DNA of 64,000 nucleotides from an uncultured delta proteobacterium (GTDB taxonomy: Bacteria > Desulfobacterota > Binatia > UBA9968): assembly GCA_963745835.1 (NCBI GenBank), contig CAVUZH010000022.1, forward strand, positions 288,001 through 352,000. The letters are read 5' to 3'. Under the pieces are notes generated by a model, which was not told where the DNA came from, searched no databases, and worked only from the letters and a program-made list of their open reading frames with translations. How positions within the stretch are numbered: the stretch's first letter is position 1; each line of letters starts with the position of its first letter. The translations under genes were made by a program, and so were the position numbers. Of the stretch, positions 43,279-62,392 are shown piece after piece.

Positions 43279-45357
43279 CTACGAACCGGCTTCGAGATCC
43301 TGATCTGGAATGTTCTTTATCTCTTCTAACCAGACCGTCGCTTCGCTGTCGCTGGGCGCCCGGTAGTCGCCGCGCGGCGACAAAGACCCCCCTGAGCCGA
43401 CCTTCGGCGCATTGGGTATGCAACTCCGCTTGTACTGGCTGAGCTGAAAAAAACGCCAGGCAAAGACCGAAAGCCAGTGCTTTATTTCGCCGACGGTGTA
43501 TTGGTTGCGCTTAAGCTCCGGAACATCGGGCCAGCGGCCCTGAGCCCGATCTCTCCAGGAGCAATACGATAGAAAGGCGATTTTCGAAGGCGCGTATCCG
43601 AAGCGGAGGGTGTAATACAGAGTGAAATCCTGAAGCTCGTACGGACCAATGATGTCTTCTGTTTTCTGGGCAAACGGCTCTCCATCATTCTTGGCCGGAA
43701 TCAGCTCGGGGCTGAAGTCGGTATCGAGAATCGCCCGCAGAAGCTGGCTCGATTGTTCACCGAGCTGGTTTGTATCAGCAACCCAGCGAATCAGAAACTG
43801 CACCAGAGTTTTCGGCACACTGGCATTGATGGCGTAATGGGACATGTGATCTCCCACGCCATAGGTGCACCAGCCCAGCGCCAGCTCGCTCAGATCACTG
43901 GTGCCAAGCACCAATGCTTGATGAAGGTTGGCGAGCCGGAAAAGATGGCTGGTGCGCTCTCCCGCCTGAACGTTTTCGAAGGTAACATCGTAAACCGGTT
44001 CCCCGCTCGCATAGGGATGGCCGATATCTCGCAGCATCTGCTCGCAGCTCGGGCGAATGTCCAGTTCATGGGATTCACAACCTATGGTCGCCATCAGCGC
44101 GTTGGCGTTGTCCAAGGTATGCTGGCTGGTGGCGAAGCCGGGCATGGTATAGGCCAAAATGTTAGAACGAGGCAGTTGCAGCACATCCATCGCTCGCGCA
44201 GCGACCACGAGCGCGTGAGTTGAATCAAGCCCGCCGGAAATGCCGATAGCGATTTTGGATATTTTAGAATTCTTGAGCCGCTTGACCAATCCCTGCACCT
44301 GAATGTTGTACGCCTCATAGCAGCGGCGGTCGCGCACCGCCGGGTCGGACGGAACGTAAGGAAATCGATCAATCTTTCGGCTGCACAACAGACGCCCCGT
44401 TTTCGGCGTCTCGAGATTAAACGGAACTTTGCGAAAGCGGCGCAACTCTTCGCGGTGTAGCTGCATGCTCTGGCCGAAGGTGTTCTGACGCATGCGCTCG
44501 AGCGCCAGCCGCTCTAAATCGAGTTCCGCCAGCACCAGCTGGGAGTCGTAACGGAACCGTTCCGACTCGCCGACAAGAACGCCGCTGTCATAGACGATCG
44601 CATGGCCATCCCATGCAAGGTCAGTGGTCGATTCGCCGGTGCCTGCTGCGGTATAGAGGTAAGCGGCGATACATCGGGCCGACTGGTTGGCGACTAGGTT
44701 GTGCCGATACTCGTCCTTCGCAATCGTTATATTCGAAGCTGAAAGATTTAAGATAACAGTGGCACCGGCTAAGGCGGCATAAGAAGAAGGCGGAATCGGT
44801 ACCCAAAGATCTTCACAAATTTCCACGCAGAACGTAAAGTCGCGCTGCTTGTCGGCCTGGAAAAGCAGGTGCGATCCAAACGGAATGGCGCTGTGGTCGA
44901 AGATCTCCACTTCGGTACTGCAAGCTGCAGCCGCCGGAGCAAACTGTCGGTACTCGTAATATTCCCGATAATTGGGCAGGAACGACTTAGGAATGATGCC
45001 AAGAATCTTCCCGCGAAAGAGGACAACAGCGCAATTGAACAATAGGTGATCGACTTGCAGCGGCATGCCGACTACGGCTACGAGGTTCAAAGCCTGCGAC
45101 GCTTTCAAGATCATCCGCAGGGAATCCAACGAGCCATCCAGCAGGGCCTGCTGGTGAAACAAATCGTCGCAAGAGTAGGCCGAGAGCCCAAGTTCCGGAA
45201 ACAGCGCTAGAACCGCCTTCTCACGCTCCGCCTTTTCCAAAAGCTCAATGGTGCGGCTCCCGTTGAACGCCGGATCCGCGACTTGCACCTCCGGAATACC
45301 GACCGCGACCCGGATGAGGCCATGATTGTATAGATTGAAAAATTCGGCGTTTTCCAT
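43279..45357 (-). CDS. nadE: Glutamine-dependent NAD+ synthetase
   Basis: Nitrilase domain (FPEL, PK..LPNY.E, EICEDLW) plus GISGGLDS, ENVQAGER, KR...P..PK. Confidence 0.96.
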   Translation of the reverse strand: MENAEFFNLYNHGLIRVAVGIPEVQVADPAFNGSRTIELLEKAEREKAVLALFPELGLSAYSCDDLFHQQALLDGSLDSLRMILKASQALNLVAVVGMPLQVDHLLFNCAVVLFRGKILGIIPKSFLPNYREYYEYRQFAPAAAACSTEVEIFDHSAIPFGSHLLFQADKQRDFTFCVEICEDLWVPIPPSSYAALAGATVILNLSASNITIAKDEYRHNLVANQSARCIAAYLYTAAGTGESTTDLAWDGHAIVYDSGVLVGESERFRYDSQLVLAELDLERLALERMRQNTFGQSMQLHREELRRFRKVPFNLETPKTGRLLCSRKIDRFPYVPSDPAVRDRRCYEAYNIQVQGLVKRLKNSKISKIAIGISGGLDSTHALVVAARAMDVLQLPRSNILAYTMPGFATSQHTLDNANALMATIGCESHELDIRPSCEQMLRDIGHPYASGEPVYDVTFENVQAGERTSHLFRLANLHQALVLGTSDLSELALGWCTYGVGDHMSHYAINASVPKTLVQFLIRWVADTNQLGEQSSQLLRAILDTDFSPELIPAKNDGEPFAQKTEDIIGPYELQDFTLYYTLRFGYAPSKIAFLSYCSWRDRAQGRWPDVPELKRNQYTVGEIKHWLSVFAWRFFQLSQYKRSCIPNAPKVGSGGSLSPRGDYRAPSDSEATVWLEEIKNIPDQDLEAGS

Positions 45358-51201: not shown

Positions 51202-52047
51202 TCACATACGGTCTTGAGAAGATCGGAGCCCTCTGAACACCCGCTCGTCTTGGTGGCAGACGATACAGGAAGCTTGCCCGCGCTCTTCCAAATTGGAGAC
51301 AAGCGCATACGTCAATCCATTGTCCGACCATGTGAGCACTTTCCAACCATTTACAGATTGAAAATGAAACCGCAGCCCTTCCCAAAGGATCTCTTCACCA
51401 CCTGATGGTCGCGCCACCGCATCCGAGGTCACCACCAAAGAGATCGGGTGACCCTTTAGGCGATAAACAATATAGGCTGCATAATCTTCCTTGAACCCGA
51501 CCAAACGTCCGCCTTCGACGTGGTAAGGCTTCGGTTCCGCCGCCTGCGGATAATCAGGCAGTTTCAAATTGAAGCCGAGCTTTCCGGCGAACCAGGTGGA
51601 AATCTTTTCAGGCGATTCGCTGAACACTTCTAGGGGTAACTGTCCCTTGAGGTACCGCACATGATTGTTGACGGCCATGGTAACAAACGAGCCGCGGTCT
51701 TCTTGGAGAGAGTTTGGCACAGCCAGCCAAAAAGCAGCGAACGCGAGCAGCAAAAGAGCGCAGGCCGCAATGATTGGCCGCGAACAAACAAATTTGGTTC
51801 GCCTGCCTGAGCTCTGCACCAGCTGGGCAACGTTTGCCTGCAATGATGCCGGAGCCGTATAAACCGGACGCGCGCTGCGTATCGCCGAAACCAACTCACG
51901 CTCGGCCTCCAAAGCGGCACGGCAGTCGGGGCAGCTCTTGATGTGTGTTTCCACAGCCAAGCGCTCGCCGTTCTGGAGCTCGTCGTCCAGATACAACGGG
52001 ATATGTTCTAGAATGTGATTATCCACTTCCACGCTTTCGCCGCACAA
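51202..52047 (-). CDS. Zinc-finger anti-sigma factor with C-terminal CxxCH
   Basis: YLDDEL..HIKSCPDC ZAS motif, one TM, periplasmic GGRL..W....YALVS domain, terminal CIVCH. Confidence 0.88.
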   Translation of the reverse strand: MCGESVEVDNHILEHIPLYLDDELQNGERLAVETHIKSCPDCRAALEAERELVSAIRSARPVYTAPASLQANVAQLVQSSGRRTKFVCSRPIIAACALLLLAFAAFWLAVPNSLQEDRGSFVTMAVNNHVRYLKGQLPLEVFSESPEKISTWFAGKLGFNLKLPDYPQAAEPKPYHVEGGRLVGFKEDYAAYIVYRLKGHPISLVVTSDAVARPSGGEEILWEGLRFHFQSVNGWKVLTWSDNGLTYALVSNLEERGQASCIVCHQDERVFRGLRSSQDRM

Positions 52048-52603
52048 CCATTAAGGCATTGGTTTTCTCAGCCAACATACTGCGAAGTTCCGCCCGCGCG
52101 CGATTCAAACGGGACATGACGGTTCCGGCGGGGCATCCCAAGATCGATGCGATTTGCCGGTAGCTGAATCCTTCGAAATAACGGAGCACCACGACTTCAC
52201 GAAACATTTCCGGCAAGCCTGAAATCGCCAGACGAATCTTTCCGGAGATCACGTTGCGCTCAAAATGATCCTCCGGGCGCTCTCGCTCATCGGACAACCA
52301 TGGTTGCAGCGGACCGCCGTCGATTCGATGTTTTCCCAGCAGAACAAACTCCGGCCCGTTGGCACGCCGGCGCCATTCATTGATCCAGATGTTGCGCAGA
52401 ATAGTAAAAAGCCACACTTTGGGATCGCTCTTAATGGCGGTGTGGGTCATTCCTTTGATGGCGCGGAGGCAGGCCTCTTGGACTAAGTCCTCGGCGTCCG
52501 TGCGATTGCTAGTCAAAGTCATGGCGAATCCGTAGAGCGCGCCAAGGTTTTCGAGAATAGCGTGCTCACCGTTGCCAGACGCTGTTTTCCGGAATCGGAT
52601 CAC
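52019..52603 (-). CDS. ECF RNA polymerase sigma factor
   Basis: DAEDLVQE, WLFTILRN, FSY.QIA.ILGCPAGTVMSRL.RAR. Confidence 0.95.
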   Translation of the reverse strand: MIRFRKTASGNGEHAILENLGALYGFAMTLTSNRTDAEDLVQEACLRAIKGMTHTAIKSDPKVWLFTILRNIWINEWRRRANGPEFVLLGKHRIDGGPLQPWLSDERERPEDHFERNVISGKIRLAISGLPEMFREVVVLRYFEGFSYRQIASILGCPAGTVMSRLNRARAELRSMLAEKTNALMVVRRKRGSG

Positions 52604-52774
52604 AGCAGATACTCCTTGCCAGAGAATCCGTCGCCGACTTTTTTATTTCAACCCAATCACGCTGCTTAATTAAACCTCTCTCGTTTTCATGTCAATCACA
52701 AACCGCGACCCGCGCGAGAACGAAAATTAGGAGAACTGACGCTGGTAATCTATTTGCTCCCTACGGAAAACCCG

Positions 52775-52801
52775 GGAATAAATTTCCCCCTCGGTTGTCT
52801 T
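52775..52801 (+). promoter_or_regulatory. Putative ECF-sigma promoter for the downstream cluster
   Basis: GGAATAAA-N14-GTCT, ~67 bp before ATG 52868. Confidence 0.55.
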
Positions 52802-52867
52802 TATCTAATAGCAGCTCAAAACAGCTCTGGCCGTGAGATCGAAGCGCTCGATTGTGGGAGGCAAGCT

Positions 52868-53623
52868 ATGTCCCATCGCTGTGTATTTTCCTTCGCCTTT
52901 TCTAAGCGCGTGTGGCTCTCGCTCGCGCTTGCAGCGATCCCCCCTTCTGGCGCCTGGTCTTATGAAGAAATTAAGGTTGCCGACGGCGGCACGATCGAGG
53001 GAAAGGTCGTGTTCCGAGGCACCGTGCCGAGTCCCCGGAAGGTGATTCCGACGCAGGATCAAGAGGTTTGCGGCGGGCCAAGAGACGAGCCGCGGCTCGT
53101 TCTTGGATCCGATAACACCGTCCCGGGAGCCGTTGTTTTCTTGAAGGGAGTCGAGAAAGGCAAAGCGTTCGAAAAGCCCAAGAAGCCTCCGGTTGTTGAT
53201 AACGCGAAGTGCAAGTTCGAGCCTGAGATTCAGGTCGTCCCGGCCGGGACGGAAATCCTGATCCTCAACTCGGACCCCGTGCTCCATAACACCCATGGTT
53301 ATCTCTTGACCGATAGCCGCAGGGGACGCACGGTTTTCAATCAGGCGTTGCCGCAAAAGGGACAACAGGTAAAATCGACCCTCAAATCGCCGGGGGTAGT
53401 GGACGTCGCATGCGACGTCCACGGTTGGATGCAGGGCTGGATCGTGGTGGCGGACAACCCGTATTTCGCGGTGACCGAAAAAAACGGCACCTTTGCGATC
53501 AAAGACATCCCGCCGGGAAAATACACCTTGGCTACTTTTCAACCTTATGTCGGAGTCAGAGAAACGCCGGTTACCGTTGAGTCGAAGAAAACCAACAACA
53601 TCAACGTCGAGCTAAAAAAATAG
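52868..53623 (+). CDS. Exported cupredoxin-like / carboxypeptidase-regulatory-domain protein
   Basis: Signal peptide; NSDPVLHNTH ... CDVHGWM (His/Cys/His/Met); G.F.IKDIPPGKYTL; start refined to ATG 52868 after GGGAGG. Confidence 0.8.
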   Translation: MSHRCVFSFAFSKRVWLSLALAAIPPSGAWSYEEIKVADGGTIEGKVVFRGTVPSPRKVIPTQDQEVCGGPRDEPRLVLGSDNTVPGAVVFLKGVEKGKAFEKPKKPPVVDNAKCKFEPEIQVVPAGTEILILNSDPVLHNTHGYLLTDSRRGRTVFNQALPQKGQQVKSTLKSPGVVDVACDVHGWMQGWIVVADNPYFAVTEKNGTFAIKDIPPGKYTLATFQPYVGVRETPVTVESKKTNNINVELKK

Positions 53624-53667
53624 CGGCAAAGACGCCGCAGGGCTCCTGTTTCAGGAAGGAGGAAGCA

Positions 53668-54807
53668 ATGAGCGACTTTGACCGTGAACGGCGCGAGGCT
53701 CAACGTGAATTGCACAACCCTGATCGGAGGCCCGATCCATCTCTCAGTATAACGCGGCGAACTTTCCTTCATAAGTCGTTAGTAGCGGGAGCTGTAACCG
53801 GAGCGGCGACGTATGGATGGTTTCCGTTGATCAATACGCTGACTCTGGCTCATGGGGCGCAAGCCGCGTTTAGCTTTGCCTGGCTTTCCGATACACACCT
53901 CTACCCCAAGAACGTCAATACGCGCTTTGTCGAGAAAGCCGTACGGGCGGTGAAAGAAATCCAGGCCATGAAGCCGGCGGCGGATTTTCTTATGTTCGGT
54001 GGCGATCTGGCCCAACTTGCCGACCCTGTAGAGCTGCGCCTCGGCAACGACATTCTCAAGGAAATAACCATCAAAAAGCATTTTATTCCCGGCGAGCACG
54101 ATTGGTATCTGGACATGGGGAAAACCTGGAATAGTCTATTCGGCAATTCACCTTGGACCTTTGAACATAAAGGCGTCCAGTTCATAGGCCTGGATACAGT
54201 GAGTCGAGCGCCTGACTATTGGTCAGCGACCAAGATGACCCCGAAAGAGAGGATGGGTCACATGGCTGGGCTGGACGGAACAGTGGCTGGACCATGGGCC
54301 GGGGTAGGCGGCGACCAGCTGCAGTGGCTGAACAAAACGCTTTCGCCTTTACCCAAAGACAGAGCGATCGTAATTTTCAGTCATAATCCTCTCTACGAGT
54401 ACTATCCTCCATGGAATTTCTGGGTCCGTGATTGGCGCCAAGTTCATGAGGTTCTCAAGCCCTATACCAATGTCACGAATATCCACGGTCATACACATCA
54501 GGTCCTCTACAACGAAATCGGTACGATGAGATCGATCGGCATGCTAGCGACTTCATGGCCATGGCCCTATGCGCCGGAAGGAGTTCCCACGCTGACCAAG
54601 CCGATGATCCGAGTAAATCCCGGAGATCACTTTGACGGCGTCGGCTGGGGGAAAATTACCGTGAGCGCGGCGCCAAAGGTCGATTACGAATACATGATGT
54701 GGCGTAAAGCCGTTTATGCAGAAGCGGAAGTTGATTCGGGTACCGGCGACAACAACAACCAGAGATTGAGACCGCGGATCGCCGATCAAATGTGGCCTTA
54801 TAAATGA
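53668..54807 (+). CDS. Tat-exported calcineurin-like metallophosphoesterase
   Basis: TRRTFL Tat motif; DTH, GD, GEHD, H, GHTH metal motifs. Confidence 0.9.
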   Translation: MSDFDRERREAQRELHNPDRRPDPSLSITRRTFLHKSLVAGAVTGAATYGWFPLINTLTLAHGAQAAFSFAWLSDTHLYPKNVNTRFVEKAVRAVKEIQAMKPAADFLMFGGDLAQLADPVELRLGNDILKEITIKKHFIPGEHDWYLDMGKTWNSLFGNSPWTFEHKGVQFIGLDTVSRAPDYWSATKMTPKERMGHMAGLDGTVAGPWAGVGGDQLQWLNKTLSPLPKDRAIVIFSHNPLYEYYPPWNFWVRDWRQVHEVLKPYTNVTNIHGHTHQVLYNEIGTMRSIGMLATSWPWPYAPEGVPTLTKPMIRVNPGDHFDGVGWGKITVSAAPKVDYEYMMWRKAVYAEAEVDSGTGDNNNQRLRPRIADQMWPYK

Positions 54808-54839
54808 TAACGAGGTGACGAAAGGAAAGGTTAGTCGTC

Positions 54840-55298
54840 ATGAGAAAGATTCTCCCGTGGCACGCTGGACTGCTTCTCATAGCAGTATTTCTTTTCGTTT
54901 TTGCTTCTCGAATGGATCATGTCCTGGCGCACAAGGAAAAACATACCCCGGAACAACTCAAAGCATTCTTTGACGTTTTCATGGAGCAGGTGCGGGTCGG
55001 GGATCTCTTGTTTCACGGCGATGGCGAGATGGAAAAAAAGCTCGGAACAAATTTATCTCGGACCGGTATGGCCTGCGCCATGTGTCACCCCTTTGCATCG
55101 GACACACACCCGCACGAATTTCCTAAGTTTGGGGAACAGACTCAGGAGTTCGCGACCTTGCGGGATATGATCAACTGGTGCATCGAGAATCCAAACGAGG
55201 GCGAAAGAATCGACGTCAACGGCCCTGCCATGAAAGCAATGGAAGCGTATATTTACTGGTCTAACAAAGGCTCAGTGTTGGATGCGGGGAAACACTAG
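54840..55298 (+). CDS. Monoheme c-type cytochrome, TsdA/SoxA-like domain
   Basis: Signal peptide; CAMCH; TLRDMINWC...G...MKAMEAYIYW. Confidence 0.75.
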   Translation: MRKILPWHAGLLLIAVFLFVFASRMDHVLAHKEKHTPEQLKAFFDVFMEQVRVGDLLFHGDGEMEKKLGTNLSRTGMACAMCHPFASDTHPHEFPKFGEQTQEFATLRDMINWCIENPNEGERIDVNGPAMKAMEAYIYWSNKGSVLDAGKH

Positions 55299-55554
55299 CG
55301 GCCAGCTCAAAAGCCTCATATGCTTCGTTGCCCTCAATTGACTAGCTGCAACGTACTGTCTGAGTATGCTTCCGCTCGTCGATATTTCGCACGCTTGGTC
55401 TCTGAGATCATTTTGAGCAGCCTGCAATCGCAGTTTTCAGCTACTGGTTGACTAAATTGGTCTCTGGGAAAAGGGATAAGCCAAGGTGAGGGTGCATGCT
55501 GATCACACATAACCCGCTGATCAAAGTAGGGAAATATTGCAGGCAACATCTAAG

Positions 55555-56385
55555 ATGAATTCTCCGGATATTTCCCGAAGAAGTTTCTGCAGGTGGAGTT
55601 CTTCACTTGTGTTGGCGGGAATCTTTACAGGTCTGAAGAATCGGCTGGGGCTGGCGCTTGATCCGGAATCGCCGGACGGCATGCTGACGGATATGCATAC
55701 GCCCAGGCTGATTCTGCCGACTATGACACGAAATGGAAATCAAGTTCCTGTCGTCGTCAAGATGAACCATCCGATGGAATTGGGCCATTACATCCGACGA
55801 GTTGAGTTCCGTAACGAAACCGACCCGATTCCCTCCAAAGGGATTTTCCACCCCACCGCCGCTAATGGTGAGACCTACTTGGCTTTCCAAGCCCGAATGG
55901 ACAGCGGCACCTCGACAGTCCTCGCTATCGCCGAATGCAGTTTACACGGGACTTGGATCGCCCGCCGCCAGATTACGATTCCCGATGGGCAAGGCGGCTG
56001 CGCCACGGTCGGCGTGCCCAAAGACGCTGCGGCCACAGAAGAGATTGTCCCGCCCGTGATCAGGATTCCTGAATTGGTCCGCAGGAACCGCCTGACTAAA
56101 GGAGAAATGGCCGAGGTCCAGGTCCAATTCAAACACCCAAGCAAGACCGGTCTTGCTTATGATGATAAAAAATTCGTCCAGATCGAAGAGCCTTTCTACA
56201 TCACATCGATGCAGGTTCTGTACGGGGAGCGCTTGGTCAGCCGCTACGAAATGACCGCAGGTTTGAGCGACAATCCCTTTTTGAAGTTCAAGCTCAAGTT
56301 CACAGAAGAAAAACCCATTCGGGTTGTTTTTACCAACAGTAGGGGCCGGCAATTCAGCGCCAGCGCGCCGGTGGTTCTATCTTAA
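55555..56385 (+). CDS. Tat-exported SoxY-SoxZ-like fusion protein
   Basis: SRRSF Tat motif; NG..VPV.V and GGC arm (SoxY-like); HP..TGL, FYI, LSDNPFLKF, V.FTNSRG (SoxZ-like). Confidence 0.82.
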   Translation: MNSPDISRRSFCRWSSSLVLAGIFTGLKNRLGLALDPESPDGMLTDMHTPRLILPTMTRNGNQVPVVVKMNHPMELGHYIRRVEFRNETDPIPSKGIFHPTAANGETYLAFQARMDSGTSTVLAIAECSLHGTWIARRQITIPDGQGGCATVGVPKDAAATEEIVPPVIRIPELVRRNRLTKGEMAEVQVQFKHPSKTGLAYDDKKFVQIEEPFYITSMQVLYGERLVSRYEMTAGLSDNPFLKFKLKFTEEKPIRVVFTNSRGRQFSASAPVVLS

Positions 56386-56390
56386 ACTTC

Positions 56391-57602
56391 ATGGGCCGGC
56401 TCTCGCTGACAGCGGCGGTTATCCTGATCGGCATACTTTGGAAGCTCGTCCCAGGAAAGACATTATCGGAGATGTTGGGATCGACAGGAGCGGACGGTGT
56501 TGTTGCGGGCAGCGCCGAACCGGCGGCCAGCTTTCATAACAAGCCGCTTCCAGCTGCCCAGTGCGGCTTTTGCCACCCCAGACACTATGACGAATGGCGC
56601 CGCTCATCTCACGCGAGCTCTCTGAGGTCCGATGATTTTGTCAGGACATTCTCGCAATATCTCGACTCGGTCGGCGAGCAGGCGCGAGAAGATTCGCAAT
56701 CATCCATGGCTTGTCTTTCGTGCCATGCCCCTCTTCTGAAACATGCCGAGCCGGGAATCGTTGGTCAGGTCGCCGGTTTTGTGCTGGCCCGGGAAACAGA
56801 AAAACTAGCCGGCTTCGAAGTTGGTTGTGTCGCTTGTCACGTTGCTGGAAACCGCGTCTTTGCCGGCCCGATCGAAAAGCCGCAGAACAATCCGTTCCAC
56901 CTTTCAAAATTTTCCCCGTCCTACAGAGAAGCGTCGTTTTGCGCCGATTGCCACACCTGGACTGCCTCTACGATTCCCTGCTCCAACGTCTACACGGACT
57001 GGAAGCTAAGCCGAGCGGCCAAAGCAGGGACAACCTGCCAGTCCTGCCACATGGCTGAGACCAGCGGCAGCGCCGCTGCCGGAGGACCCGAGAGAAAAAT
57101 ACACGACCATGGTTTTCCGGGCGCAGGTTCGGCCGCCATGCTGCAAAAAACAGTGGTGCTTGGTCTGAAAGCCAACTTTCCGAAGAATCGTCTCGAAGTG
57201 ACCGCCACGATCCGCAATCTTACTCCTCATCGGGTGCCCGATGGCTGACCGTGGAACAGCTACGCGGTCCTGGAGGTGACCGTAGCGGATGAAACCGGAT
57301 GGGAATTCGAGACCATAAAACGGACCTACGCCAATTTCGGCATCGATAAAAATGGCGAGAGTACTGGGATCGCTTGGAAGATTGTCAGGCAATCGCCGGA
57401 TTCAACGGCATTGAGAGCGGAGGAAGTTCGCATAGAAAAAATCAGTTTTAACGTCGAGCCGCGGGACGGCAAGCGATTCACGATCCAGGCGAGGATGCGT
57501 TACCAGTACGCGCCCGCGCCACAGGATGGCTCCCGTCAAGAGAGTGACGGCAGGCAAATGGCGCAGGCAACCTTAACGCTACCGGGCAAGCGCCCGTCTT
57601 AG
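56391..57602 (+). CDS. Pentaheme c-type cytochrome, probable selenoprotein (UGA at 57246-57248 = Sec286; 403 aa)
   Basis: Five CxxCH motifs; ORFs 56391-57248 and 57276-57602 are in frame and separated only by TGA in HRVPDG-U-PW; SECIS-like hairpin follows. Confidence 0.85.
57259..57286 (+). other. Bacterial SECIS-like hairpin
   Basis: GCTAC/GTAGC and GGTC/GACC stems with a small G-containing apical loop (UGGA) starting ~23 nt after the UGA. Confidence 0.75.
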
Positions 57603-57620
57603 TTTGCAAGAGCAAATCGC

Positions 57621-59027
57621 ATGGCAGATCACGTGATTGAAAACGGCAACGAGGTCATCAACCCAGAGCTGATCAAGGGTTGGCTGCTTTGGGGGTTCGT
57701 CTGGGTGCTTTTAGCGCCGACCCTCGGCGTTATCATCTCGACCAAGTTCACCTATCCCGAATTTTTGGAGGGAGTCCCGGCGCTGACGTTCGGCAGGTTA
57801 CGGCCGATTCACGTCAATGGCGTGATCTTCGGGACTTTTTCGACTCTCTTCATCGGGCTTTGCTACTACATTGTGCCCAAGCTGGCGCAGGTCCGGATCT
57901 ACAAAGAGGAATGGGGCTATCCCATGCTTTGGATCTGGAACCTGGCTCTGATCGCCGGCTTCGTCTCGCTCGCTCTGGGATACAATCAAGGCCTTGAAGC
58001 CGCCGAGTTTCCTCTTGTCATCGACATCATCATCTGGATTGCCTTGCTCGCCGTTACAGTCCAATTTCTCGTTACCGTGGCGCGGCGCAAGGAGCCGGGA
58101 CTTTACGTGAGCCTCTGGTATCTGATTGCCGCTCTGGTTTGGATGGATATCAACTGGCCGTTCGGCAACTTTATTATTCCGTACGCGATCCCCGGCATAA
58201 ACAATGCCGCGCTCCATGGTCTCTACATCCATTACATCGTGGGGCTCTGGATCACGCCCGCTGGCTATGTGCTGATCTATTATTTCCTGCCGGCAAGCGT
58301 TAGAAATCCGATCTACAGTCATAAGCTTTCGCTGATCGGCTTCTGGTCTCTCGCGCTCTTTTATCCATTCGTCGGCATTCATCACTATCTATTCAGTCCG
58401 ATCGCCGACTGGGCGGAGACGATTTCGATTATGATGAGCGTTTTGCTGATTTTGCCCGTGTGGACGGTGCTGCAAAATTTTTTCGGCACGATGATTGGGC
58501 GCTGGCAAGGCTTCGCCGGTAATCTCACCGCCAAATTCCTCATCACGGGCGCCCTCATGTACATTATCGGTTGTTTTCAAGGATCGACCGAGGCGCTGCA
58601 GGCCTTGCAGCGGCCCACCCATTTTACCGACTTCGTCATCGCGCACTCACACCTGACGATCTTCGGCACGTTCGTGCTTTGGGCTCTCGCAGGAGTCGTC
58701 TATGTCTGGCCGCGCGTGACCGGCCGCGAGCTCTATAGTTTCCGGATGGCCAACTGGGGCTATTGGCTGATCACCATGGGCATCTCCGCCATGGGTGTGA
58801 TTCTGACAGCACAAGGATTACAGCAAGGTTTCATGCTGATTGCCGGCGCAGAGTGGCTCGACTCGCTTGTCTCCATGCACCCCTTCTGGTGGTTCAGAAC
58901 GTTTTCGGGGATCTCCATGGACGTGGGTATGAGTCTTCTCCTGCTTAGCTTGTTGTGGGGACCGAAGTCGCCGGCGGCGGAATCATCTCTGGCACGCCAC
59001 CCGCAAACCGCGCCTGCGGCCGTTTAG
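57621..59027 (+). CDS. ccoN: cbb3-type (C-family) heme-copper oxidase subunit I, divergent
   Basis: FGRLRPIHVNGVIFG, HYIVG, YYFLP, YSHKL, YPFVGIHH, HFTDFVIAHSH: six His ligands and the helix VII Tyr. Confidence 0.85.
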   Translation: MADHVIENGNEVINPELIKGWLLWGFVWVLLAPTLGVIISTKFTYPEFLEGVPALTFGRLRPIHVNGVIFGTFSTLFIGLCYYIVPKLAQVRIYKEEWGYPMLWIWNLALIAGFVSLALGYNQGLEAAEFPLVIDIIIWIALLAVTVQFLVTVARRKEPGLYVSLWYLIAALVWMDINWPFGNFIIPYAIPGINNAALHGLYIHYIVGLWITPAGYVLIYYFLPASVRNPIYSHKLSLIGFWSLALFYPFVGIHHYLFSPIADWAETISIMMSVLLILPVWTVLQNFFGTMIGRWQGFAGNLTAKFLITGALMYIIGCFQGSTEALQALQRPTHFTDFVIAHSHLTIFGTFVLWALAGVVYVWPRVTGRELYSFRMANWGYWLITMGISAMGVILTAQGLQQGFMLIAGAEWLDSLVSMHPFWWFRTFSGISMDVGMSLLLLSLLWGPKSPAAESSLARHPQTAPAAV

Positions 59028-59040
59028 GAAAGAAAACAGA

Positions 59041-60696
59041 ATGCGATACGCAAAAACAGTAGCTGTCATTGCCGGCTTTGGCTTCATAACCCTGGCGCTT
59101 TTTGTCCAGGGACTTCTCCCCGCCCTGCTCCCGGAATCGCGCTCGGAGACAGTCTCACGGGCGGTCAGGACCCGTCTCACCGAGCTCAAATGGATCGAGT
59201 ACCCGGCTGAGAACTACACGGAGCTGGAGCAATTAGGAAGGCAAGTCTATATTCGAGAAGGCTGTTGGTATTGTCACTCTCAATATATCCGCCCGGTCAC
59301 CGGCGAAGATCAACGCTGGGGGCCGGTTTCCCAGGCGGGAGAATACGCCTTCGATGTGCCCCACCTGTTTAGCACCCGCAGGATCGGACCCGACCTCACT
59401 CGCGTCGGGCTGAAATACAGCGACCACTGGCATTTCGCCCATCACTGGAATCCGCGCTTGGTGGTGCCTGACTCGAACATGCCCTCTTTCCCTTGGCTGT
59501 ACGAGCAGATCACGGTCGGATTGGTGGAAAAAGATGGAAAGCTCGCCTTTAAAGACGATTCCGCGCTGCGCAAGATTTTTACCTTCAAAGAAGGAAGCGA
59601 AATCCAGATCCTGCCCAATATCGATGGGCTCGCTTTCGCTCGGGAGCGCGATGGAGTTCCGGTATTAAACTTCGATCCGTTGCCTGACCCGCCAAAGACA
59701 AAAACAATCACCATCGTCACGCCGACGCGAGAGGCGGAGGGATTGGTCGCTTATATTCAGAAGCTCGGCATGAATCGCGGCCAGTGGCGCGACCTCTTCG
59801 AACCTCAACGGGTTTTTGTCAGCCAGTTCTCCATTCCGGAGTCCCAGGACTGGATAGCTCACGGCAAGGAAGTTTACCTCCGGCGCTGCGTCGGTTGCCA
59901 TGGCGAGAAAGGAGACGGCAACGGTCCGGCAGCGACGTTTCTCAGTCCGCGACCACGCGACTTCAGGGACGCGGTCTTCAAATTTCGCATCACCCCGTCA
60001 GGCGCCCTGCCAACCGAAGGCGATCTTTACCGGACGATTACGCGCGGCATCCGCGGCACGGCGATGCCGCCCTGGCACGAGATTCCGGAAAAACAGCGCC
60101 TGGCGGTGATTCTATTTATCAAGACTTTCTCACCGGCCTGGAAAGACAAAAATTTGAAGGAAGCGCCGGTTAATCTTCCCGATCCTCCCGCGCCCAGCGA
60201 AGAGCTCATCGCTCAGGGCGAGAAACTTTATATCAACGAAGGAAAGTGCTGGAACTGCCATGGCGGTCCCGGGATAAAGGACAACCAACCGTTCAACTAT
60301 CCCTGGGGCCGGGGCCCATCGGCGCCGACTTTGAAAGACGATTGGGGCTTCCCCTTGCTCGCGAGCGATTTCACGACAGGAATATTTAAGTCGGGATCCG
60401 ACGTGACCGATATTTTTCGGACCATGAGCACGGGTCTGAACGGCGCAGCCATGCCGTCTTTCGCTACCAACCTGACCGATGAACAGCGCTGGGCCATCTC
60501 CTACTACGTGCTGAGCCTTTCCGCTTATCTCGATCCGCTGCATCAAAAGAAGCTCCAGATCCCGGAGCAGGTGAAGGCCGCGCTCGACGATCCGAATTTA
60601 AAGACGCCGACATGGCGAGCGGCGTTCGATCCGACAAAAGCGGAAACAGCGGTAGCCGGTGAAAGACCCAAGAACTATCTTAGGATCTCGGAATGA
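59041..60696 (+). CDS. ccoO: CcoO fused to two further cytochrome c domains (triheme)
   Basis: YIREGCWYCHSQYIRP, RRIGPDL, S.MPSF (CcoO), then CVGCH..GTAMP and CWNCH..GAAMP. Confidence 0.85.
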   Translation: MRYAKTVAVIAGFGFITLALFVQGLLPALLPESRSETVSRAVRTRLTELKWIEYPAENYTELEQLGRQVYIREGCWYCHSQYIRPVTGEDQRWGPVSQAGEYAFDVPHLFSTRRIGPDLTRVGLKYSDHWHFAHHWNPRLVVPDSNMPSFPWLYEQITVGLVEKDGKLAFKDDSALRKIFTFKEGSEIQILPNIDGLAFARERDGVPVLNFDPLPDPPKTKTITIVTPTREAEGLVAYIQKLGMNRGQWRDLFEPQRVFVSQFSIPESQDWIAHGKEVYLRRCVGCHGEKGDGNGPAATFLSPRPRDFRDAVFKFRITPSGALPTEGDLYRTITRGIRGTAMPPWHEIPEKQRLAVILFIKTFSPAWKDKNLKEAPVNLPDPPAPSEELIAQGEKLYINEGKCWNCHGGPGIKDNQPFNYPWGRGPSAPTLKDDWGFPLLASDFTTGIFKSGSDVTDIFRTMSTGLNGAAMPSFATNLTDEQRWAISYYVLSLSAYLDPLHQKKLQIPEQVKAALDDPNLKTPTWRAAFDPTKAETAVAGERPKNYLRISE

Positions 60697-60771
60697 GAAA
60701 AGTGAATTTTAGCGCCGAAGAAAATGGTTTCGGCCAACGCCGAAGAGTGACATCCCAATGAGGTCAGAGCC

Positions 60772-60927
60772 ATGCTCGAGCTAATCACGTTGATAGAATT
60801 CATTGTTGCCTTTCTGATGGGACTTGCGGCTTGCTGCTTTCTCTTCTGGGGAATTCTCGATGGCGCCTTCGACAATCTCGAAGATATCAAGCACCGGATT
60901 CTGGAGATTGAAAAAGATGAACCATGA
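60772..60927 (+). CDS. ccoS: cbb3 oxidase maturation protein CcoS (51 aa, below ORF-track cutoff)
   Basis: MLELITLIEFIVAFLMGLAACCFLFWGILDGAFDNLEDIKHRILEIEKDEP; TM followed by W...G.FD.LE. Confidence 0.75.
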   Translation: MLELITLIEFIVAFLMGLAACCFLFWGILDGAFDNLEDIKHRILEIEKDEP

Positions 60928-61246
60928 ACATCGCAGCTCGGACGAGCTTGAACACTACGCCGGTGGCGAGATCCAGGCGCGCCACGGGATCGTCAACAGA
61001 TGGCTGCTGGGACTGTATGCCGTGCTCTTTCTCTGGTCGATTCACTACCTGATTGGGCCGTTCGATGGACTGCGGCCGACGTTTGAATTTTGGGGCTGGG
61101 GAGGGTTAGGGGCGGGATTATCCAGCAAGGGCGCAGAACAAGGAGTCGAAGGACTCCAAGTCATCGGTGTGATCGCCCTTTCGATCGTCATGATTTCGGT
61201 CGCCGGCTTCTTTATTTGGGTTGTGATTCTAGCGCGGAAGAAATAA
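60917..61246 (+). CDS. Small membrane protein resembling the CcoP N-terminal segment
   Basis: HYAGGEIQARHGIVNRWLL.LY..L..W...Y; two TM segments; no heme motif. Confidence 0.55.
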   Translation: MNHEHRSSDELEHYAGGEIQARHGIVNRWLLGLYAVLFLWSIHYLIGPFDGLRPTFEFWGWGGLGAGLSSKGAEQGVEGLQVIGVIALSIVMISVAGFFIWVVILARKK

Positions 61247-61432
61247 TTTGTTCGACGCTGTTTGCCGGTCGACACCGCTCGGGAGAGAAGGCGAACGACC
61301 AGCAATTTGGTCCATGGTAGACCCGTCAAAGTACTCCTGATTAACTTATTAGTTCAAGGGACGTAGCGCCTGATGGAGCTCGCTGAGAAAATCGTTTTGG
61401 CGCTTATCTGGGTTGCATTGGCGCTGCTCGCA

Positions 61433-62392
61433 TCAGATGCGGCCTTCAACCTTTTCAGCGCCGTCACTCAAGGCTCGTTTCGTTGATCGTTTGCGTCGTC
61501 CCTCACCGAGCAGGGCGTTGACCAGAATCAAAATCGCGATCGCATACGTGGTACTCCCCACCGCGAACATGACAATGCCGCCGCCGATTTGATCTTCCTG
61601 GGGCGTCAAACCCCACAGCCGCAGAGCCGTTTGGTAGTGCGGGTAGAGAACTTCGCTCGAAAGCGCGATGACACCGGCTAGGATCGTATCTTGAGTGGCG
61701 GCGAAAAAAAGATAGACGATCGACATTCCGTGTTGGATCGGTGCGGGGTGCGACGCAGGCTGAATCACCGGCCACCAGAATACCAGCGCGGTGAGAAAGA
61801 AAAGCACATGCTCGAGATCGTGGATCCACGGCACACGCAAAGCCGTGTCATAGAGAGCCGGATAATGCCAGGCCCACAGATTGATGACATAGAGGCCCCA
61901 AGCCACGGGCATCCAGCCTAAGATATCGCGTGCCCGGCGTATCGCCGAATGACGAGTCAGAAGATGGCCCGCCCGCAATCGCGAATTCCCACGCAGGCCC
62001 CACAACAGGACGGGAACCGGATTAGCCAGCAGGATAAATGGCGGCGCAACCATGATCAGTAGCTCGTGCTGCACCATATGGGCGATGAGCAAGTAAGAGG
62101 CAAGATCGTCGAGGGGCGACAACAGCGCGGCGCCGATGGCAAGCAAACCGATTTCATAAATAACCAGTTGAGAGAGGTTCGCCACTCCACCGATCTCTCT
62201 TAGGCGAAACCAGCCACGCATATAAAGCGCTGCAAAAATGGCCAAGACCGCAATAACATCCCAGCGCCAATGCCAATCGGTGAGCACCCTATTGCCATCG
62301 GCGATATGGGCGGGAGCCGGCGCGGTCCAGCCCATCAAAAAAAACGTTGCAATGAAAAAGACCGCCCAGTGGGTATCTTCTTGACTGGCCAT
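61433..62392 (-). CDS. Cytochrome c oxidase assembly factor (Caa3_CtaG family)
   Basis: SPLD, AHMVQH.LL..VAPP, WH.P.LY, H.LEH, FWWP, DQ..GG..M. Confidence 0.9.
   Translation of the reverse strand: MASQEDTHWAVFFIATFFLMGWTAPAPAHIADGNRVLTDWHWRWDVIAVLAIFAALYMRGWFRLREIGGVANLSQLVIYEIGLLAIGAALLSPLDDLASYLLIAHMVQHELLIMVAPPFILLANPVPVLLWGLRGNSRLRAGHLLTRHSAIRRARDILGWMPVAWGLYVINLWAWHYPALYDTALRVPWIHDLEHVLFFLTALVFWWPVIQPASHPAPIQHGMSIVYLFFAATQDTILAGVIALSSEVLYPHYQTALRLWGLTPQEDQIGGGIVMFAVGSTTYAIAILILVNALLGEGRRKRSTKRALSDGAEKVEGRI

Follow-up and report, generated by a model that had tools for sequence, protein, structure and literature searches.

A syntenic gene unit joins a pentaheme selenoprotein and a SoxY/superoxide reductase-like carrier to a cbb3-type oxidase in an uncultured bacterium

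The pentaheme selenoprotein MccSep, the ExtKL product (GSU2937-2936) of Geobacter sulfurreducens, is described in the main text of its characterization as a periplasmic homotetramer with five hemes per subunit, in which heme 2 is ligated by a histidine and Cys239 and selenocysteine (Sec) 325 is placed in a D-G-U-P loop (Mihara et al., Sci Adv 2026, PMC13510729). According to the same main text, MccSep reduces polysulfide and, less well, selenite, both the Sec residue and the heme-ligating cysteine are required, sulfur respiration needs the enzyme, and its mechanism is related by the authors to the reverse of the TsdA and SoxAX reactions; that text makes no mention of SoxY, of an oxidase or of a gene-cluster analysis, and the supplementary tables may list the clade considered here (PMC13510729). 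In Geobacter, the neighbors of extKL encode the rhodanese-like ExtH, the porin ExtI, multiheme cytochromes and a Rieske/cytochrome b pair, and ExtI of this cluster has been linked to selenite and tellurite reduction, as excerpts of PMC5877670 describe. Superoxide reductases (SORs) exported by the twin-arginine translocation (Tat) system are presented in the relevant passages on SORGOdb merely as a SOR plus a signal peptide (PMC3116461). Here we describe a gene unit at positions 51202-62392 of a 64,000-nt stretch of DNA (hereafter the window; contig CAVUZH010000022.1, positions 288,001-352,000, assembly GCA_963745835.1) from an uncultured delta proteobacterium of the class Binatia, which encodes a relative of MccSep, a SoxY-type carrier with the predicted iron-ligand positions of a SOR, and a cbb3-type oxidase of its own.

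Every gene that the first-pass annotation had listed in this interval was located at or near its assigned position by open reading frame (ORF) mapping and by Pfam and NCBIfam scans. The same annotation had made its proposal of an undescribed system depend on co-occurrence in other genomes, and the families do recur in genomes and metagenomes, as one strictly syntenic 13-gene unit in 29 related loci. Our scans returned 46 loci, three from genome contigs and 43 from metagenome contigs; the former scan yielded just three because one of the two patterns demanded a cysteine codon at the Sec site. A close homolog of the pentaheme protein (43-85% identity) is present in 29 of the 46 loci, the other 17 having a distant one (25-31%). 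Adjacency was scored in the 29 close loci, only where at least 350 nt of contig were left, and is preserved wherever the contig allows, down to about 43% identity of the pentaheme protein: from the anti-sigma to the sigma gene in 7/7 loci, from sigma to cupredoxin in 8/8, then to the phosphoesterase in 9/9, to the SoxA-like cytochrome in 11/11, to the carrier in 13/13, to the pentaheme gene in 21/21, to ccoN in 16/16, to ccoO in 9/9, to ccoS in 6/6, to a gene for a 109-aa protein in 6/6 and from there to ctaG in 5/5. Not every one of the 29 loci is independent, as L024/L025, L035/L036 and L026/L041 nearly duplicate each other and L010 and L011 belong to a single assembly; the gene arrangement is far beyond chance. 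The flanks beyond the anti-sigma and CtaG genes vary between lineages, the window and L010 having a major facilitator superfamily (MFS) gene in common, L025 and L026 sharing other genes and L035 differing again, and therefore the 13-gene unit has fixed borders; it is found in at least three different genomic neighborhoods. The 17 distant pentaheme loci contain none of the other cluster genes, and these genes are likewise absent around a Sec homolog in genome G036 that is 42% identical to the window protein.

The pentaheme selenoprotein gene occupies positions 56391-57602 on the plus strand. Its product has five CxxCH heme motifs, at C58, C108, C146, C184 and C216, which are invariant in the alignments, and an in-frame TGA (57246-57248) at codon 286 in the loop HRVPDG-U-PW. 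The first-pass annotation had read this codon as Sec, and several lines of evidence agree with it. TGA is found at this position in 25 of the 25 foreign loci that cover it; five full-length homologs (P0002-P0006, 63-68% identical) have cysteine at the site in the same context, HRVPDG-C-PWNSYAVLEVTV, and most other close database entries, of about 285 aa, are gene calls that end at the UGA. SelB (394 bits, cut-off 242) and tRNA-Sec are both encoded in the genome. A hairpin resembling a Sec insertion sequence (57264-57283, plus strand), 15 nt 3' of the UGA, is shared by 13 sequences as a consensus hairpin in which one pair is compensatory and three changes are wobble-compatible; this evidence is weakened by the amino-acid constraint on the same bases. 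When the sequence that follows the UGA is folded singly, its energy is no better than that of shuffled sequences (z -0.43), and the support for the hairpin comes from the alignment. Judged from the sequences, the UGA is a true Sec codon.

In a profile search against the Protein Data Bank (PDB), the pentaheme protein matched the pentaheme cytochrome c552 5ze8 (E 3.8e-34) and MccSep (9wt8/9wt9, E 4e-25). The alignment with MccSep spans 363 profile positions and places U286 on the Sec position, which is printed as X in 9wt8 and is Ala in the U325A chain 9wt9, and C197 on the heme-ligating cysteine. C197, in the motif IPCSNVY, aligns with the first cysteine of QCCTSY and is invariant in 37 homologs, and is thus predicted to ligate a heme. 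The score against the NCBIfam model NF040886 ("multiheme c-type cytochrome (seleno)protein ExtKL") is 122.8 bits with a curated cut-off of 250, and we class the protein as a relative within the MccSep/ExtKL superfamily and not as an equivalog. An action of the multiheme selenoprotein on carrier-bound sulfane sulfur or selenium, as suggested in the first-pass annotation, has gained a biochemical anchor in the polysulfide reductase and selenite side activity of MccSep; its substrate and direction in the window organism are what we infer.

Of the 151 genomes sampled from the class, two have Sec-type homologs: G401, which is closely related to the window organism, and G429. In both, the Sec homolog lies within one gene of a hybrid carrier. 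In the GC-rich G429 (L131, 9796-13143), an MccSep-like gene, a sulfur-transport gene of the PF04143 family (178 bits) and a SoxY/SOR-SoxZ fusion follow each other in a row. The selenoprotein of G429 is 37% identical to that of the window and has the motifs PDT-U-PW and VCSLTY, its carrier has four ligand positions and GGC, and the phosphoesterase, the SoxA-like cytochrome and the oxidase are absent within 10 kb. The proposed link of the Sec multiheme protein to sulfur is thus strengthened by a distant homolog that stands beside a YeeE-type sulfur transporter and a carrier of the same kind. Another relative is found in an operon of G385 (L063, 7534-14171) that encodes a Fur-type regulator, rubrerythrin, a 509-aa pentaheme protein, a Tat-SOR, desulfoferrodoxin, ferritin and a flavodiiron protein. 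This pentaheme protein has serine at the Sec site and no heme-ligand cysteine and is therefore not of the catalytic type; the operon suggests a periplasmic SOR that receives its electrons from a pentaheme protein with this fold. Distant pentaheme relatives at L058 (1441-3321), L059 (9101-10981) and L060 (1726-3603) continue in the same frame into a fused cytochrome c region similar to the diheme part of the CcoO protein described below.

The carrier gene (55555-56385, plus strand, with an alternative start at 55537) lies 5 nt upstream of the selenoprotein gene and encodes a Tat protein. It exceeds the Pfam cut-offs for SoxY (PF13501, 60.8 bits, cut-off 28.4), SoxZ (PF08770, 66.5 bits, cut-off 25) and desulfoferrodoxin (PF01880, 46.3 bits, cut-off 22.2). 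The SoxY-SoxZ fusion of the first-pass annotation thus stands as regards both Sox domains and the arm cysteine; its N-terminal half, however, also matches desulfoferrodoxin and has SORs as its best structures. The only PDB sequence relatives of the carrier at E<=1 are SORs, including 4bk8, with the His, His, His and Cys-x2-His motifs aligned at positions that we take to be those of the SOR iron ligands (four His, one Cys). The carrier also has a SoxY-like NG-x-VP motif, and ITIPDGQGGC forms the end of its first domain. Among 21 sequences with 25-45% identity, no change is seen at H54, H84, C134, H137, G154 and C155 and hardly any at H78, that is, the SOR ligand positions and the arm are essentially the invariant residues of the carrier; conservation of the GGC cysteine, on which the earlier proposal hinged, therefore extends even to this range of identity. 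By alignment, the SoxY half keeps all five SOR iron-ligand positions plus the SoxY arm cysteine.

The predicted structure (predicted local distance difference test, pLDDT, 71.2) resolves the SoxZ half well, and the C-terminal half matches the SoxZ/SoxY structures 2oxh, 2ox5 and 2oxg in Foldseek with target TM-scores of 0.83-0.86; for the N-terminal half, Foldseek is undecided between SOR and SoxY. The models for true SoxY (TIGR04488, 30.8 bits, cut-off 125; TIGR04557, 90.6 bits, cut-off 140) and for SOR (TIGR00332, 26.1 bits, cut-off 61.9) are not reached, and the arm, instead of the C-terminal GGCGG, has GGCAT and runs on into a linker. When 1.84 billion representatives were searched, 257 related clusters were obtained, of which 149 are listed besides the window's own and 80 cover the domain. 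Among these 80 listed matches, 29 have all five ligand positions (25 of the 29 also have the arm cysteine, and nine end in GC), 16 have four (10 with the arm cysteine) and 30 have two or fewer (28 with the arm cysteine); the last group resemble conventional SoxY-like carriers. Several members stand alone, as Tat proteins of 155-170 aa with GGC as their very last residues. This family of Tat proteins (the window carrier, P0276, P0280, P0286, P0288 and P0292), which pairs the five SOR iron-ligand positions with a SoxY-type arm, seems to bridge SOR and SoxY in evolution. On either side of it, the true Tat-SOR of G385 (P0390) ends after the domain, with no arm, SoxZ or NG-x-VP motif, and the canonical SoxY of G291 has the arm and lacks the ligands. 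We found no description of a SOR/SoxY hybrid in the full-text searches made, and the family appears undescribed.

Upstream of the carrier, three genes on the plus strand encode a secreted amicyanin-like type-1 copper protein (52868-53623), a predicted Tat-exported metallophosphoesterase (53668-54807) and a SoxA/TsdA-like monoheme cytochrome c of 152 aa (54840-55298). In the copper protein, which matches amicyanin 3ply (E 8.5e-5), the motif H...C-x2-H-x2-M aligns with that of 3ply and the ligand positions are invariant in seven homologs; its beta-sandwich flanks are CarboxypepD_reg-like, with CarboxypepD_reg matches below the cut-off, and in P0464 a phosphoesterase homolog is naturally fused to a CarboxypepD_reg-type domain that resembles the C-terminal part of the copper protein. 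The phosphoesterase (PF00149, 38.8 bits; twin-arginine motif TRRTFLH) has 1972 relatives. The best 120 listed homologs are 71-90% identical, the few with a named source among them coming from Binatia, Entotheonellaceae, Tectimicrobiota, Rokuibacteriota, Methylomirabilota and Myxococcales, and relatives from the window's own phylum and class are just 37-48% identical. Residues 142-145 of the phosphoesterase read G-E-H-D, with E143 invariant in 28 sequences, at a site where the family consensus is presumably G-N-H-D/E; glutamate as a metal ligand at this site might indicate another kind of metal pair or one that is redox-active.

In the SoxA-like cytochrome (PF21342, 36.8 bits, cut-off 27), CAMCH and INWCIENPNEG are invariant in 10 sequences, and the cysteine of the latter, a candidate heme ligand, is aligned with the catalytic-region cysteine of SoxA 1h31 and TsdA 4wq7. 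The protein has a single heme motif and scores 30.2 bits against SoxA proper (TIGR04484, cut-off 110). SoxX (TIGR04485, cut-off 61) was sought among ten window proteins, not in the genome, and gave only 24.8 bits, inside CcoO. The AlphaFold2 model of the phosphoesterase, with a pLDDT of 54.8, is too poor for use. A complex prediction in which the SoxA-like cytochrome was the partner of phosphoesterase and carrier gave a median of 0.21 (mark 0.32), a value that speaks neither for nor against binding.

The phosphoesterase is followed by the SoxA-like cytochrome in all four of the more distant genomes examined, each without SoxYZ, and the pair is therefore an older, independent module. A diheme cytochrome c peroxidase precedes the pair in three of these genomes, at L104, 4634-7972 (G204), L105, 9035-12322 (G385) and L106, 8655-11302 (G203); a Fur-type gene adjoins it in G385, peroxiredoxin and ferritin-like genes lie near it in G204, and a sigma/anti-sigma pair precedes it in G143. 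No description of the triad of peroxidase, phosphoesterase and cytochrome was found in the full-text searches made. The peroxidase, the acceptor-side neighbor of the pair, is replaced here by the copper protein and the oxidase. The phosphoesterase does not match SoxB (TIGR04486), and the role of SoxB counterpart given to it in the first-pass annotation has to be withdrawn: as a SoxB analog specific to this carrier it was rejected, since its pairing with the SoxA-like cytochrome is widespread and occurs without SoxYZ (in 4/4 distant genomes, 3/4 of them beside a peroxidase).

Downstream of the selenoprotein gene, the plus strand encodes CcoN (57621-59027; COX1, 237 bits), the subunit I of a cbb3-type (C-family) heme-copper oxidase, and, after 13 nt, CcoO fused to a CcoP-like diheme cytochrome c domain (59041-60696; FixO, 149.9 bits, plus two cytochrome c domains, with three CxxCH in total). 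CcoN matches CcoN of Pseudomonas stutzeri (3mk7) with E 1.8e-53 and has the same residues at the conserved His and Tyr positions, which we take to be the heme and CuB ligands and the cross-link Tyr. It is the sole C-type subunit I in the genome, which has two other heme-copper oxidase homologs. The equivalog cut-offs are missed for ccoN (216 vs. 583 bits), ccoO (143 vs. 200.65) and ccoP (45.8 vs. 179.95), the ccoO fusion scores 178 bits against PRK14486, below its cut-off, and there is no separate CcoP, the CcoP-like diheme domain being joined to CcoO. A CcoS/FixS-type maturation peptide (60772-60927, plus strand; PF03597, 27 bits, cut-off 23.1) is followed by a 109-aa membrane protein (60917-61246, plus strand), which is 61-91% identical in the 6/6 loci that reach that far. 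The latter had been taken for a CcoP-N-like peptide, a label we drop, as it has no Pfam match at E<=0.1. The unit is closed by a convergent gene for a Caa3_CtaG-type oxidase assembly factor (61433-62392, minus strand; PF09678, 183 bits). Conservation is unequal within the operon: mean identity in the close loci is 89-93% for CcoN, CcoO and the phosphoesterase (91-93% for CcoN and CcoO), 75% for the carrier and 67% for the N-terminal heme domain of the selenoprotein.

Divergent from this redox operon lie genes for an extracytoplasmic function (ECF)-type sigma-70 factor (52019-52603, minus strand; Sigma70_r2 and r4_2, TIGR02937 107.8 bits) and a membrane anti-sigma factor with an N-terminal zinc finger of the zinc-binding anti-sigma (ZAS) type (51202-52047, minus strand; PF13490 zf-HC2, 41.9 bits; H-x3-C-x2-C in the translation). 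The sigma factor carries regions 2 and 4 only and the downstream zf-HC2 anti-sigma gene overlaps its gene by 29 nt, as is expected of an ECF pair. The ECF control proposed in the first-pass annotation is supported by a promoter-like motif, GGGAATAAA-N-TTGTCTT (52774-52801, plus strand), located 67-94 nt 5' of the cupredoxin start, which is kept in 7/7 aligned loci while the remaining spacer varies, and whose strict form occurs once in the 7.28-Mb genome; its layout presumably resembles that of usual ECF -35/-10 promoters, and it would be a candidate target of the sigma factor. The sigma gene has its own conserved block upstream, containing TTGACA (52686-52699). A possible operon break had been suspected at the gap of 55299-55554 between the SoxA-like and carrier genes. 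This gap of 256 nt contains a non-coding insertion of about 200 nt, other loci having 47-100 nt there, and terminator-like sites (16 found vs. 13.6 expected) show no excess on the plus strand; we rejected the break, as the insertion is lineage-specific and there is no terminator excess. The insertion is limited to the window and the two loci most closely related to it, L009 (4636-4898) and L011 (4505-4760).

Genome-wide searches found no SoxB and no DsrA, SoxC was not above its cut-off (23.8 vs. 420 bits), and there is no second SoxY, SoxA/TsdA or ExtKL-like gene. The absence of soxB proper and soxCD, noted earlier for the window, thus extends at these cut-offs for SoxB and SoxC to the whole genome, DsrA is likewise absent, and, of the selenocysteine machinery that the first-pass annotation wished to see, selB is present, as is tRNA-Sec. 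Elsewhere in the genome we identified one weak match to flavocytochrome c sulfide dehydrogenase and one cytochrome c peroxidase. In G291, of a sister genus, SoxY, SoxZ and a PF04143 transporter are encoded divergently from flavocytochrome c sulfide dehydrogenase and a diheme cytochrome (L090, 9530-12447), so relatives of the window organism carry ordinary sulfur-oxidation genes. The genes that flank the unit in the window are unrelated to it (PaaA-like, shikimate kinase with a helix-turn-helix domain, and TenA upstream; an MFS transporter downstream). The window NadE (43279-45357) is 97-98% identical to that of the L009 assembly and 97% to that of G401, and 31% to the best match in G291, the sole further genome of that family; the assembly is 97.1% complete with 9.33% contamination, and therefore the taxonomic placement of the contig (C22) merits a check.

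We tentatively favor, at a little below an even chance, the view that the unit encodes an ECF-controlled periplasmic chain in which carrier-bound sulfane sulfur is turned over and electrons pass via the blue copper protein to a dedicated cbb3 oxidase. The self-contained chain would comprise three modules: (i) the Tat-exported binuclear-metal phosphoesterase paired with the SoxA/TsdA-like monoheme cytochrome, which may have His/Cys heme ligation; (ii) the Tat-exported carrier, with a swinging-arm cysteine, a putative SOR-type iron site and SoxZ, together with the pentaheme selenoenzyme, whose Sec would lie near a His/Cys heme; and (iii) the cbb3-type oxidase with its fused diheme entry domain, CcoS, the small membrane protein and the CtaG-type factor. 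The amicyanin-like protein would be the likely shuttle between modules. The most likely substrate is sulfane-type sulfur bound to the carrier cysteine, be it a persulfide, a polysulfide or a thiosulfate-derived form; S-S bonds would be formed or cleaved by the Sec/Cys-heme enzyme, with O2 as the final electron acceptor at the dedicated oxidase. Substrate, oxidative direction, electron path and the roles of the iron site and the phosphoesterase are all proposed in this conditional sense. Such a chain accounts for the Sec/Cys-heme enzyme, the SoxA-type Cys-heme, the arm cysteine, the SoxZ domain and the transporter context in G429. Several observations weigh against it: the only characterized member of the MccSep family acts reductively in an anaerobe, as its main text describes (PMC13510729); the anion-binding arginine of MccSep has no clear counterpart in the window protein, whose ExtKL score of 122.8 bits lies below the cut-off; the cluster has no dedicated sulfide- or thiosulfate-specific enzyme and the genome no PF04143 transporter; and Sox chemistry offers no explanation for the five SOR ligand positions, which rank with the best-conserved residues in the carrier. 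To these are added the pentaheme relative of G385 beside a Tat-SOR in a rubrerythrin/desulfoferrodoxin/flavodiiron operon, the relatives of the phosphoesterase-cytochrome pair beside a diheme peroxidase with Fur-type, peroxiredoxin or ferritin-like genes nearby, and the far wider spread of the phosphoesterase family than of the carrier/selenoprotein module.

Some of these points are what one would expect of a periplasmic defense against oxygen and reactive oxygen species, in which the SOR site would reduce superoxide, the Sec/heme enzyme and the phosphoesterase-cytochrome pair would handle peroxide or its products, cbb3 would scavenge O2, and the ZAS-type anti-sigma would turn the unit on under oxidative stress. 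This explanation, which we consider rather unlikely but weighty, accounts for the SOR ligands, five positions that align with solved SORs and are invariant or nearly so in 21 diverse homologs, for the peroxidase and SOR contexts of relatives (the pentaheme protein of G385 between rubrerythrin and Tat-SOR after a Fur-type gene; the phosphoesterase-cytochrome pair after a diheme peroxidase in G204, G385 and G203, with a Fur-type gene beside it in G385 and peroxiredoxin and ferritin-like genes near it in G204), for an anti-sigma zf-HC2 domain with H-x3-C-x2-C, and for the oxidase. However, it gives no role to the invariant arm cysteine, the SoxZ domain or the SoxA/TsdA-type Cys-heme; the pentaheme protein of G385 has serine at the Sec site and no ligand cysteine, and its Tat-SOR has neither GGC arm nor SoxZ; the independent context in G429 is a sulfur transporter and not stress genes; and the main text on MccSep reports no peroxide activity (PMC13510729). 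An improbable alternative is reductive detoxification or respiration as in Geobacter, where the Sec cytochrome would reduce free or carrier-bound polysulfide or selenite with electrons from the quinol pool and the oxidase would merely be co-regulated. Both residues that MccSep needs for polysulfide and selenite reduction, according to its main text, the Sec and the ligating cysteine, are present in the window protein (PMC13510729), and excerpts on the Geobacter cluster tie ExtI to selenite and tellurite reduction (PMC5877670); yet ExtH, ExtI and the Rieske/cytochrome b pair, as listed there, are absent among the scanned cluster genes, a quinol-oxidizing donor module is absent from the unit, the fixed partner is a terminal oxidase (adjacency 16/16), and the genome also encodes aerobic A-type oxidase homologs. 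Finally, the phosphoesterase/cytochrome, carrier/selenoprotein and oxidase genes might be two or three unrelated operons that are chance neighbors in one lineage. The first two of these modules do occur apart elsewhere, and the rates of the modules are unequal (91-93% for CcoN/CcoO vs. 67% for the N-terminal part of the selenoprotein); nevertheless, the perfect order in all 29 loci down to about 43% selenoprotein identity, the short intergenic spacers (5 and 13 nt), the single conserved ECF-type promoter and the recurrence of the unit in at least three different genomic neighborhoods make such an accident highly improbable.

The sulfur-turnover chain that we favor and the oxidative-stress contexts of its relatives could be unified if modules (i) and (ii) were periplasmic Cys/Sec-chemistry donor modules that feed the host's own oxidant reducer, which would be a peroxidase or SOR in anaerobes and the copper protein with cbb3 here. 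A bolder version, which we regard as unlikely when all its parts are taken jointly, would make the unit a new sulfur-to-oxygen respiratory system: an MccSep-family Sec/Cys-heme enzyme would oxidize a persulfide on a SoxY-type arm beside a SOR-type iron centre, both replacing the chemistry of SoxCD and SoxB and feeding a private cbb3 oxidase via blue copper, and the hybrid carriers would be the link that reveals the descent of SoxY from SOR-like iron proteins. The parts are of known kinds and their assembly is new; no description of the combination was found in the full-text searches made, and the Protein Atlas gives only generic names for the proteins looked up. MccSep was characterized only in 2026 and, by its main text, solely as a reductase of anaerobic sulfur respirers (PMC13510729), and here, in a large genome of aerobic type as well as in many contigs from the environment, a clade of the same superfamily is joined to a terminal oxidase. 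Should the enzyme run in the oxidative direction, sulfane sulfur would be linked to oxygen by a route that needs neither molybdenum nor SoxB, and selenium would have a new use in aerobic organisms. The carrier unites SOR and SoxY, families from separate fields, and offers a testable hypothesis on the origin of SoxY and on an iron-assisted carrier, and the phosphoesterase-cytochrome pair, with >70% identity over several phyla and a place beside a peroxidase in anaerobes, is a conserved and unstudied enzyme pair.

Compared with the described systems, the window protein shares with MccSep the periplasmic pentaheme architecture with five CxxCH, the UGA-encoded Sec in a P-D-G-U-P loop, a cysteine at the distal ligand position of heme 2, a C-terminal domain after the Sec and the coexistence of Sec and Cys forms in the family; however, it is nearer by profile to the pentaheme c552 5ze8, and its context lacks the porin, the rhodanese and the Rieske/cytochrome b pair and has instead the SoxYZ-like carrier and the cbb3 oxidase. 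With the Sox system, the unit has in common a Tat SoxY-SoxZ pair whose Gly-rich arm carries a cysteine, a SoxA-type cytochrome that has cysteine at the catalytic position, and a Tat-exported hydrolase fold with a binuclear metal. It differs in that Y and Z are fused, GGC is followed by a linker, the SoxY domain has the SOR iron-ligand positions, SoxA is monoheme, a separate SoxX-like gene is absent from the window, the hydrolase is not SoxB, SoxC is absent and every NCBIfam cut-off for a true Sox protein is missed. Similarly, the likeness to TsdA is limited to a cytochrome c domain with a cysteine aligned to the active-site Cys region, whereas the window protein has one heme domain of 152 aa instead of two hemes and is always paired with the phosphoesterase.

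The Tat-SOR class, as far as the SORGOdb passages describe it (PMC3116461), shares with the carrier a twin-arginine signal and a centre-II-type domain with His, His, His, Cys and His positions, whereas the true Tat-SORs (P0390 of G385) are without NG-x-VP, the GGC arm and SoxZ, and iron binding by the window carrier is predicted. The oxidase resembles the cbb3 systems encoded by ccoNOQP and ccoGHIS in the His/Tyr positions of CcoN, which are as in 3mk7, in the CcoO domain and in the CcoS peptide. In contrast to them, its diheme domain is carried by CcoO instead of CcoP, there is no recognizable CcoQ, a caa3-type CtaG is attached, and the whole oxidase is embedded in a donor-enzyme operon under a putative ECF sigma factor.

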